64,000 nt of DNA from an uncultured Flavobacteriales bacterium (lineage in GTDB: Bacteria; Bacteroidota; Bacteroidia; Flavobacteriales; UBA1820): NCBI GenBank assembly GCA_902462305.1, contig CABQBC010000001.1, positions 135,938-199,937 on the forward strand, in the 5' to 3' direction. This document shows, piece after piece, positions 38,110 to 56,117 of the stretch. The first letter of the stretch is position 1; the number at the start of each line of letters is the position of its first letter. The position numbers and the translations under genes are program-made. The notes under the pieces were generated by a model that saw only the letters and a list, made by a program, of their open reading frames with translations, was not told the origin of the DNA and made no database searches.

Positions 38110-38188
38110 ACGACCGGTGTGTGTTTTGACATAGATTTTTTTTCAGTATATTTGAAGTCCGTTTACATACGGACTTCCTTTATTTACC

Positions 38189-38710
38189 ATGGAAACTATC
38201 TGGATAATAATAGTCCTCGCACTGCTGATAATAGCCCTTCTGGGGGCGTTCATCCCGGTTTTGCCGAGCATTACCGTAGGATGGGTGGGAATACTGATAC
38301 TGTATCTGGTCAGTGACGACGCCGTGTCCGGCAATACGATGCTATGGGTCACTCTTGCCGCCATAGGCGTCAAAGCGCTGGACATACTGCTGCCGCTTTG
38401 GGGCGTAAAAGTATTCGGCGGCACGAAAAAAGGAGTCAACGGGGCCACCGCAGGGCTGATAATAGCCACCGTTTGGGCTTTCACACCGTTCACCCTGCTC
38501 TTCCCTGGTTTTTTAGCCATAATAGTATTCCCGATAATAGGCGCATTCGCCGGTGAACTGATGGCCGAAGGCGGCAACATTCCCAAAGCGATAGGCGGTG
38601 CGGCAGGCTCACTGCTCGGCTTTTTCATGTCCGTAGGCTTCAAGTTCGCCCTTATCGTATGGTATCTCTACATCGCGATAACGCCATATCTGGAAAAGAT
38701 ATTTTCCTGA
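38189..38710 (+). CDS. DUF456-like small membrane protein
   Basis: 173 aa with four or more TM helices. The N-terminal LLGAFIPVLPSITVGWVG resembles the DUF456 motif. Confidence 0.55.
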   Translation: METIWIIIVLALLIIALLGAFIPVLPSITVGWVGILILYLVSDDAVSGNTMLWVTLAAIGVKALDILLPLWGVKVFGGTKKGVNGATAGLIIATVWAFTPFTLLFPGFLAIIVFPIIGAFAGELMAEGGNIPKAIGGAAGSLLGFFMSVGFKFALIVWYLYIAITPYLEKIFS

Positions 38711-38860
38711 CGCAATCCGCGGCACATACCTGAAACAATCGGGATATTTCGCATCCCATCCATACTGCAATATGCCTTCATTTTCCGCCGTACAAGAATA
38801 TCATAGAGTAAATTTCCCGCTTTATCACGGCACTTTGCCACAATCATGTGACATGCCCAT

Positions 38861-38893
38861 AAAAAAAGAACTTGACAAATAAATTTGCCAAGT
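38861..38893 (-). terminator. intrinsic terminator of the candidate sRNA
   Basis: Minus strand acttggcaaa-ttta-tttgtcaagt forms a 10-bp stem (one G.U) with a 4-nt loop, followed by tcttttttt. Confidence 0.65.
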
Positions 38894-38979
38894 CCTAAAA
38901 CTAACCTATACTAAAAAACTACAACTATGAAACTACTACTAACTAATATATACTTTATCTTTTACCTTATCTTTTCTAA
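38862..38979 (-). ncRNA. candidate small RNA of about 115 nt (C-depleted, ORF-free), bracketed by a consensus promoter and an intrinsic terminator
   Basis: Minus-strand body: gttagaaaagataaggtaaaagataaagtatatattagttagtagtagtttcatagttgtagttttttagtataggttagttttagg. It has no ATG and many stops in all frames. There is a single C before the terminator hairpin. The 5' end is predicted, not known. Confidence 0.45.
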
Positions 38980-38984
38980 CGATA

Positions 38985-39016
38985 CAAATATACGCAGCCA
39001 AAGCGACAAAAGCAAA
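38985..39016 (-). promoter_or_regulatory. full Bacteroides-type promoter: TTTG (-33), 20-nt spacer, TATATTTG (-7)
   Basis: Minus strand reads gatTTTGcttttgtcgctttggctgcgTATATTTG. No CDS lies downstream on that strand before the terminator. Confidence 0.55.
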
Positions 39017-39220
39017 TCATCAATGCCATTTCACCCCATTATACCGCCGTTTTAAAACGGGCGGACAGGGCCACTGCAACCGCATTAATAAAAAATAAAC
39101 AACCGGGTATGCGCTAAAAAAACTAAGCCTCAATTTTTAACCTTAAATTCACTTAAAAATTGTTTTTATGCAAAAAATAACCGGACACACATAATTAACA
39201 CTATTTCCCCTCTCGGACAT

Positions 39221-39249
39221 GAAAAAGGCGGCCCCAAAGGGGCCGCCTT
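39221..39249 (-). terminator. intrinsic terminator of serS
   Basis: aaggcggcccc-aaa-ggggccgcctt forms an 11-bp GC-rich stem, followed by a T tract on the minus strand. It lies 20 nt after the serS stop. Confidence 0.8.
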
Positions 39250-39269
39250 AAGTTATCTGCGTATAACTG

Positions 39270-40544
39270 TTAATCTATAATATCGAAACCTGTATACGCC
39301 TGAAGGGCCTTCGGTATACGTATGCCCTGCGGGGTCTGGTGATTTTCCAAAAGCGCCGCAACGATACGCGGAAGCGCAAGAGAAGAACCGTTCAGGGTAT
39401 GCGCAAGCACACGGTTGCCGTCGACATCCTTGTAGCGGAGCTTGAGCCTGTTTGCCTGAAAAGTCTCGAAGTTCGACACGGAACTTACCTCGAGCCAGCG
39501 TTTCTGTGCTGCTGAGAACACCTCGAAATCGTAAGTCATCGCCGAGGTAAAGCCCATATCGCCTCCGCACAGACGGAGGATATGATACGGCAGTTCGAGA
39601 TCGCGCAACAAGCCTTTCACATGTTCAAGCATCTGGTCCAATGCGGCATAAGAATCCTCCTGGCGTTCCACCCGCACGATTTCCACCTTGTCGAACTGGT
39701 GCAGACGGTTAAGCCCGCGCACGTCCTTGCCGTAAGAACCCGCTTCGCGGCGGAAACATGGCGTATATGCCGTGCATTTTATAGGGAGGCTGGCGCCGTC
39801 CACTATCACGTCGCGGAAAATATTGGTCACGGGTACTTCCGCCGTAGGTATCATGTAAAGGTTGTCCACCTGGTTGTGATACATCTGGCCTTCCTTGTCA
39901 GGCAACTGGCCCGTACCGTAACCCGAAGCCTCGTTTACCATATGCGGAGGCTCTATCTCGGTATATCCGGCGGCAGTGTTGCGGTCCAGGAAAAAGTTTA
40001 TCAGAGCCCGCTGAAGCCGCGCGCCTTTTCCCTTGTACACGGGGAAGCCTGCTCCGGTTATCTTCACACCGAGTTTAAAGTCGATTATATCGTATTTCTC
40101 GGCCAATTCCCAGTGAGGCATGGCTCCTTCGAAGAGTTCGGGAATGGCACCTTCGGCAAACACTTCCTGATTGTCTTCCGCGCCGAACCCCTGCACCACC
40201 AGTTTGTAAGGCACGTTAGGTATGAGGTACAGCAAGTCCTGAAGTTCTTTTTCAGTAGCCGAGAGCCTTTCTTCGAGTTCCTTCGACTGAGCCTTGAGCG
40301 CTGCCGTTTTCTCCTTCAGCGGCGCAGCTTCTCCCGCGCGGCCGGACTTGAACATGTCTCCTATCTCCTTGGCCAGCGAGTTGAGCTCTGCCAGATTGTT
40401 GTCCAAAGTGTTCTGCGTAGCCTTGCGGGTATCGTCCAACAGAAGCACTTTTTCTATCATTTGCTCAGCATCCTTGAAATTCCTTTTTGCCAGCCCTTCG
40501 AGCACCTGCTCCTTGTTCTGGCGGATAAAACTTGTCTGTAACAT
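39270..40544 (-). CDS. serS: serine--tRNA ligase
   Basis: 424 aa with an N-terminal coiled-coil arm and class II motifs (FRREAGSYGKDVRGLNRLHQFDKVE and GSSLALPRIVAALLENHQ). Confidence 0.95.
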   Translation of the reverse strand: MLQTSFIRQNKEQVLEGLAKRNFKDAEQMIEKVLLLDDTRKATQNTLDNNLAELNSLAKEIGDMFKSGRAGEAAPLKEKTAALKAQSKELEERLSATEKELQDLLYLIPNVPYKLVVQGFGAEDNQEVFAEGAIPELFEGAMPHWELAEKYDIIDFKLGVKITGAGFPVYKGKGARLQRALINFFLDRNTAAGYTEIEPPHMVNEASGYGTGQLPDKEGQMYHNQVDNLYMIPTAEVPVTNIFRDVIVDGASLPIKCTAYTPCFRREAGSYGKDVRGLNRLHQFDKVEIVRVERQEDSYAALDQMLEHVKGLLRDLELPYHILRLCGGDMGFTSAMTYDFEVFSAAQKRWLEVSSVSNFETFQANRLKLRYKDVDGNRVLAHTLNGSSLALPRIVAALLENHQTPQGIRIPKALQAYTGFDIID

Positions 40545-40715: not shown

Positions 40716-40746
40716 TTTGTCCGCACCACGTCTTACCGTATATTTG
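40716..40746 (+). promoter_or_regulatory. full promoter TTTG-N19-TATATTTG upstream of the VOC gene
   Basis: agtTTTGtccgcaccacgtcttaccgTATATTTG lies about 65 nt before the ATG at 40811. Confidence 0.5.
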
Positions 40747-55460: not shown

Positions 55461-55871
55461 TCAGATATCCTCGAACTCAATATTGGTAAAGCGGCTCGAT
55501 AGCGAGATGTCTTCCTGCGTGCCCTCACGATCCGAAGCTACGGCGTGCTCGGCATCGATATCGTCAGGAGTCTTTTTATAGTCCTTTATATGACGTTCCG
55601 ATATGACTTCCTGCCCCTTTTCTTTCAAAATAAAATCGGTAGCTTCTTCAAAAAACGATTTAAAAGATTCGAAATCCTCTTTGTAAAGGTAGATTTTATG
55701 TTTCTTGTATTCGTTTACGCCCGATTCCTGGCTGAATTTTTTACTTTCGGTGATAGTCAGATAGTAGTCTCCGGCCTTTGTAGTCCTTACATCGAAAAAG
55801 TATGTCCTCCGTCCCGCCCTGAGTGCCTTGGAAAATATCTCGGTATTATCCTGGTATTCGTTTTCTCCCAT
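55461..55871 (-). CDS. PUR-alpha-like nucleic-acid-binding protein (DUF3276-like)
   Basis: 136 aa. RAGRRTYFFDVRTTKAGDYYLTITESKK and HKIYLYKEDFESF match the PUR-repeat pattern seen in Bacteroidota DUF3276 proteins. Confidence 0.6.
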   Translation of the reverse strand: MGENEYQDNTEIFSKALRAGRRTYFFDVRTTKAGDYYLTITESKKFSQESGVNEYKKHKIYLYKEDFESFKSFFEEATDFILKEKGQEVISERHIKDYKKTPDDIDAEHAVASDREGTQEDISLSSRFTNIEFEDI

Positions 55872-56044: not shown

Positions 56045-56117
56045 GTTTCGGTAGCTCAGTTGGTAGAGCAATTGACTCTTAATCAATGGGTCGTGGGTTC
56101 GAGCCCCACCCGGAACA
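56045..56117 (+). tRNA. tRNA-Lys (anticodon CTT)
   Basis: Folded by hand into a 73-nt cloverleaf. Acceptor gtttcgg/ccggaac (one G.U), D arm gctc-agttggta-gagc, anticodon arm attga-ctCTTaa-tcaat, T arm gtggg-ttcgagc-cccac and discriminator A. CCA is not encoded. Confidence 0.9.

Follow-up and report, generated by a model that had tools for sequence, protein, structure and literature searches.

Regulation by RNA in the Bacteroidota is only beginning to be mapped, and almost all of that work is in cultured Bacteroides. In Bacteroides thetaiotaomicron, GibS and the FopS sRNA family (PMC7366714, PMC11697453) are transcribed from sigma-A-type promoters with the TAnnTTTG box and are built as a single-stranded 5' seed region followed directly by a Rho-independent terminator. 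These RNAs pair with translation initiation regions that lack Shine-Dalgarno sequences, and the RRM-1 protein RbpB binds them, its footprints lying in the single-stranded parts of sRNAs (PMC11697453). Further afield, the Hfq-dependent GcvB of Enterobacteria, which has several stem-loops and lies next to gcvA, has a highly conserved, C-poor, G/U-rich single-stranded region (R1) that pairs with C/A-rich sequences in or near the initiation regions of many mRNAs. The CsrB/RsmZ-type RNAs of Proteobacteria end in a terminator and sequester the protein CsrA by presenting many copies of a GGA motif in hairpin loops with variable spacers, and in Sib/Ibs-type type I toxin-antitoxin loci a small RNA lies fully antisense to a short ORF with a hydrophobic start. 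The locus considered here, from an uncultured human-gut Flavobacteriales lineage, is very probably a real and previously undescribed small regulatory RNA gene. It shares its build with GibS and FopS, but its unstructured, cytosine-poor, UAG-rich core is almost letter-for-letter identical between relatives whose neutral DNA is completely scrambled.

The predicted RNA gene and its surroundings

The DNA analysed (the window) is a stretch of 64 kb with a GC content of 0.50. Within it, a 559-bp gap (38711-39269; GC 0.38) separates a DUF456 membrane-protein gene (Pfam PF04306; 38189-38710, plus strand) from serS (39270-40544, minus strand), and the longest ORFs touching the gap are 59, 42, 37 and 36 aa. 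An earlier note had described on the minus strand of this gap a Bacteroides promoter, a short noncoding body and a terminator, and its observation holds, since every feature lies where the note had placed it. The -33 element, TTTG (39016-39013; core TTG at 39015-39013), is followed by 20 nt and by the -7 box TATATTTG (38992-38985). The organism is labelled Flavobacteriales, and not Bacteroides as the note had implied, but the same sigma-A consensus applies, as TAnnTTTG occupies -12 to -5 in flavobacteria (PMC9723704), which places the inferred +1 at about 38980. The pattern TTTG-N18-21-TAnnTTTG occurs 5 times in the window against 0.91 expected, a count reached by 0 of 100 shuffles, and two of the other four sites (38125-38154 and 40716-40746) sit just upstream of ORF starts, before DUF456 and the glyoxalase gene, respectively.

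The 88 nt from 38984 to 38897 hold 2 C, only 1 of them after the predicted +1, no ATG, and stops in all three frames. In 85-nt windows, the lowest count of any base elsewhere in the 64 kb is 5, whereas here it is 1. The body comprises a purine-rich 5' leader (38980-38946) and the core UAGUUAGUAGUAGUUUCAUAGUUGUAGUUUUUUAGUAUAGGUUAGUUUU (38945-38897; 49 nt, and 50 nt in other lineages), with UAG occurring 9-10 times in 54 nt, against at most 4 on the other strand. A second correction to the note is that its AGAUAA repeats lie in the leader, as a 12-nt unit x 2.1 specific to this lineage, and not in the conserved part. The terminator hairpin, AGGACUUGGCAAA-UUUA-UUUGUCAAGUUCU (38896-38867), which the note gave as a 10-bp stem, extends to 13 pairs, two of them G.U, with a 4-nt loop, and is followed by six more U (38866-38861). 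The predicted RNA would be about 120 nt in this genome and 99-130 nt in relatives.

Nothing lies downstream on that strand except the antisense of DUF456. Upstream, serS has its own GC-rich terminator (39249-39225, minus strand; 11 pairs, 9 of them G-C, followed by TTTCAT), so the unit does not depend on serS read-through. Strains of the species carry either AAA or TTT in the loop of this terminator (39236-39238), which looks like a loop-inversion polymorphism, and one strain has a 3-nt insertion at 39241. A near-perfect GC-clamped inverted repeat, CCGCCGTTTTAAAACGGGCGG (39044-39065), is centred about 75 nt upstream of the inferred sRNA start and is present in strains of this species but not in the other lineages; it could be a lineage-specific regulator site or a leftover terminator. 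On the plus strand, a 9-bp hairpin, GAAGUCCGUUUACAUACGGACUUC, followed by CUUUAUUU (38154-38177), lies between the DUF456 promoter and its ATG at 38189, and could be a structure at the 5' end of the mRNA or an attenuator for DUF456. Elsewhere in the window, a SAM-II riboswitch (long-loop type, RF01726; 49459-49518, minus strand) scored 67.4 bits, above its gathering score, and a tRNA lies at 56045-56117 (plus strand).

No Rfam family matched the element, in line with the note, which could not match it to a named family: the whole window at gathering thresholds and 38600-39350 at E up to 10 gave nothing credible, and over 38861-39016 only noise was returned (SSRC38 at 20.8 bits against a gathering score of 80, and snoRNA models). 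No paralogue was found in the window at up to 3 mismatches, and three core patterns gave 0 hits in IMG/VR, offering no evidence of a phage copy.

Comparative evidence for a minus-strand RNA

The decisive evidence, all of it comparative, came from a search for homologues of DUF456, the contigs that encode them, and a metagenome scan with a 19-mer from the core. Of the 9 hits of the scan, seven are the syntenic copy and two (L106 and L109; L numbers denote the loci and contigs recovered) are chance matches. Together these searches recovered the locus from at least seven further lineages of uncultured gut "Flavobacteriales bacterium" (L099/L100, L101, L096-L098, L095/L104/L105/L108/L111, L103, L115 and L112/L113), with one copy found per locus or contig. 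The exact serS and DUF456 proteins of the window occur on many human-gut metagenome contigs, the DUF456 protein being listed in 659 blocks of the collection, and in MAGs with the same NCBI label. Three truncated loci, L094 (88% relative), L102 and L116, end before the position where the element would lie and are uninformative. A partial search of genome contigs with serS returned only Flavobacteriaceae at 65-71% identity, none of which carries the element by blastn-short or nhmmer --max; the best nhmmer hit (L003, 99-149; E 0.0086) appears to lie in coding sequence with no promoter or terminator in view and was read as chance.

Divergence from the window is deep. In the recovered lineages, the serS protein is 83-85% and DUF456 65-72% identical to that of the window, serS second codon positions are 90-92% identical, and its four-fold degenerate sites are saturated (26-42%), while the rest of the intergenic DNA cannot be aligned. 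Even so, the full layout is kept in 13 representative sequences from at least seven lineages. In all 13, a TTG lies 20-21 nt upstream of the TAnnTTTG box although the spacer sequences differ, and the A/G-rich leader varies in sequence and length, with 18-48 nt between box and core. It is followed by the block UAGUUAGUAGUAGUUUCAUAGUUGUAGUUUUUUAGUAUAGGUUAGUUUU(U)AGGACUUG, i.e., the core and the base of the hairpin, about 58 contiguous nt in all, then by a hairpin whose base is fixed and whose top and loop vary, and by a run of 6-8 U. The core is 100% identical across lineages apart from one U of a U-run, of which the window species has one fewer than all other lineages, and changes in two contigs of low coverage. 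The first, L098 (2.8x; ERZ10779912), is identical to L097 over 1,765 nt except for three changes within the core (L098 1546-1591, minus strand; equivalent to window 38912-38935), each turning GUAGU into GUUGU (A to U on the RNA strand), potentially an assembly or sequencing artefact in a low-complexity stretch, or potentially a real concerted variant. The second, L108 (2.5x), has one U-to-G change.

Loss of conservation relative to the flanks had been named beforehand as the result that would count against a stand-alone sRNA, and the opposite was found. Within the species of the window, 11 strains show 1 variable site in the 156 nt of sRNA plus promoter, an A-run indel in the leader at 38971, against 20 in the other 403 intergenic nt. 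The note's interpretation, an independent sRNA made of a promoter, a short noncoding body and a terminator, is thus supported.

The terminator also identifies the strand. Across 6 distinct variants of the hairpin, 98.7% of cells pair, against 38-65% when the partners are slid; pair 11:24 is A-U, G.U or U.G, pair 14:21 is A-U or G.U, and pair 15:20 is A-U, G-C or G.U. With six sequences the shuffle control is weak (about 50 of 500 shuffles reach the observed values), but the wobble pairs are still informative, because they would be A.C mismatches in a plus-strand RNA, and the hairpin is therefore maintained for the minus-strand transcript. This bears on the alternative that the element works as DNA or on the plus strand, as a protein-binding array or as a G-poor, C-containing Rho-loading (rut) region that terminates DUF456. 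The plus-strand copy is indeed unstructured and almost free of G (1 G in 85 nt), a property of rut sites, and lies directly downstream of a gene without a recognisable terminator. However, rut sites do not need a fixed sequence, and a correctly spaced sigma-A promoter and U-tract terminator are conserved on the minus strand in every lineage. In addition, a -7-like box, TAAATTTG, on the plus strand in the loop region of the terminator (38880-38887) is absent from the other lineages and is probably fortuitous. We regard this alternative as very unlikely.

A type I toxin-antitoxin-like pair, in which the antisense ORF (38927-39055, plus strand; beginning MKLLLTNIYF) would encode a small hydrophobic toxin, is already largely refuted. 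The ORF starts with an A-rich initiation region, its first 16-17 residues are hydrophobic in the window, and the sRNA fully overlaps its start. However, its length is 10, 16, 17, 19, 21, 23, 30, 38 or 42 aa in different lineages, and it is frameshifted within the species (42 aa in the window against 17 aa in L088, another strain). Only the first 6 codons are shared, and these are identical at synonymous positions too. No plus-strand promoter is conserved, all three plus-strand frames are closed upstream of the ATG inside the conserved block, no Pfam family matched, and no gene caller called the ORF. Neither is the element a leader or riboswitch, as its terminator faces the 3' end of a convergent gene and no gene lies downstream on the strand in any lineage, nor a ToxI-like type III antitoxin, as no tandem array was found beyond the small repeat in the leader and no toxin gene follows on the same strand.

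In every locus that holds both, the sRNA gene converges on the 3' end of DUF456, although the upstream neighbour is an ABC-2 transporter or RsgA and the downstream neighbour is serS, hypothetical genes or a glycosyltransferase. The L114 relative of DUF456, at 61% identity, has no element within the 5.9-kb locus fetched. In L099-L101 only about 10 nt separate the DUF456 stop codon from the U-tract, and in the window no plus-strand terminator-like site lies between the two genes, so the DUF456 mRNA may carry the perfect complement of the sRNA in its 3' UTR. The two complementary RNAs, or the converging polymerases, would then control DUF456 3'-end formation or stability, or the 3' UTR would soak up the sRNA. 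Such a cis-antisense or mutual-sponge relationship is a serious rival or an additional layer, but as the main explanation we consider it unlikely: complementarity in cis is automatic and cannot by itself explain the fixed sequence, the distance to DUF456 varies from about 10 to about 470 nt (the latter in L112/L113), and short-range synteny among related genera can persist without a functional link. The partnership nonetheless offers a handle on the DUF456 family, for which the only functional study found links B. subtilis YqgC to manganese efflux (bioRxiv 10.1101/2024.02.14.580342).

Proposed modes of action

The body is predicted to be unstructured, as the note had guessed. Only the terminator folds consistently in six lineages, the folds predicted upstream of it are weak and differ between lineages, and the core consensus (56 nt, with the AGAAAG found in other lineages) folds at only -4.6 kcal/mol. 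The functional surface is therefore a long single-stranded stretch of G, U and A, and the two uses that the note had suggested for it, a pairing seed or a protein sponge, both fit and do not exclude each other. What the analysis has established are the promoter and terminator signals, the predicted lack of structure, the absence of coding and the extreme purifying selection; transcription itself, the targets and any protein partner are inferred.

We favour base pairing, with a confidence that is about even, in contrast to the high confidence that this is a functional sRNA gene. In this view, transcription would start near 38980 and end at 38866-38861, and the core would act in trans as an extended pairing surface for G-poor, A/C/U-rich mRNA segments, above all translation initiation regions, blocking initiation or changing mRNA stability, probably with the help of a single-stranded-RNA chaperone of the RRM-1 type, as with GibS and FopS. 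The initiation regions of 44 long ORFs in the window lack a Shine-Dalgarno sequence and are 43% A and 14% G, complementary in composition to an almost C-free RNA, and the core contains an anti-start-codon motif, UUUCAUAG, flanked by U-runs. However, a seed normally needs 8-20 conserved nt, and invariance over about 58 exceeds what pairing to a few targets requires. Nor did the 64 kb yield a convincing target: exact complementary words of 9 or more nt number 23 against about 25 expected from word counts, CTAAAAAC occurs 5 times against 3.5 expected, and the best duplex outside the locus (55751-55800; -32.6 kcal/mol), within the gene for a 136-aa DUF3276 protein (55461-55871, minus strand; Pfam E 9e-46), is matched by 16 of 39 shuffled cores.

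The alternative that the same transcript is a protein-binding decoy is a less likely, though possible, reading. RbpB of B. thetaiotaomicron binds a 3x repeat of the G/U/A motif GUAGGAUA, which the UAG units resemble, with a KD of 5.1 uM, but not a C/U motif (bioRxiv 10.1101/2021.04.27.441718), and invariance over the whole core fits dense, overlapping protein contacts better than it fits a short seed. However, the UAG spacing is irregular (4, 3, 3, 8, 6, 8, 5, 5, 8 nt), known sponges tolerate spacer changes and none is seen here, and the RbpB motif comes from another order and rests on in vitro binding only. A consensus query found no RRM-1 gene in the window, although 64 kb is too little to judge. 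At its most speculative, and improbable on present evidence, the RNA would be the Bacteroidota counterpart of the CsrB/6S-class global titrators, an array of about ten UAG sites that sequesters the RRM-1 chaperone of the phylum or another abundant single-stranded-RNA-binding protein, and so sets global post-transcriptional output. Its conservation, as strict as that of rRNA, would then reflect protein contacts along the whole core, and it would be the first protein-sponge RNA in a phylum that lacks Hfq, ProQ and CsrA.

Comparison with described RNAs

The general build of the locus is familiar, and what is new is the sRNA family itself, which stands out for its conservation, unusual for an unstructured sRNA, its near-absence of C, its density of UAG and its fixed position beside DUF456. 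That about 58 nt are fixed across genera-level divergence points to a dense interaction surface of high fitness value, and the composition gives a concrete motif to set against the RRM-1 proteins and Shine-Dalgarno-less initiation regions of the phylum, in a lineage that is uncultured yet widespread in human gut metagenomes. Like Sib/Ibs-type loci, it has a small RNA antisense to a short ORF with a hydrophobic start, but the ORF is not conserved in length or sequence and the conserved block extends well upstream of it. With CsrB-type RNAs it shares many copies of a short purine-containing motif on one small RNA that ends in a terminator, and the role proposed in the decoy reading would be that of CsrB/RsmZ for CsrA, but here the motif is UAG, there are no hairpins to present it and the spacers are invariant; CsrA, moreover, is reported absent from Bacteroides (PMC13370968). 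GcvB follows the pairing logic that the note had proposed, but no homology to it was found in Rfam, and here the motif is UAG-based, the terminator is the only structure, and the neighbours are DUF456 and serS rather than gcvA. The closest parallels remain GibS and FopS, from the same phylum, with the same type of promoter and the same arrangement of single-stranded 5' region and terminator. This is a resemblance in design and not evidence of membership, as no sequence or covariance-model match to them or to the other Rfam-curated Bacteroides sRNAs (BTnc families) was found even at E up to 10. One copy was found per locus or contig, against 14 FopS paralogues; the RNA gene occurs in uncultured Flavobacteriales and not in Bacteroidaceae; and its conserved block is about 58 nt, UAG-rich and almost free of C, where FopS has a seed of about 21 nt with 28-44% overall identity.
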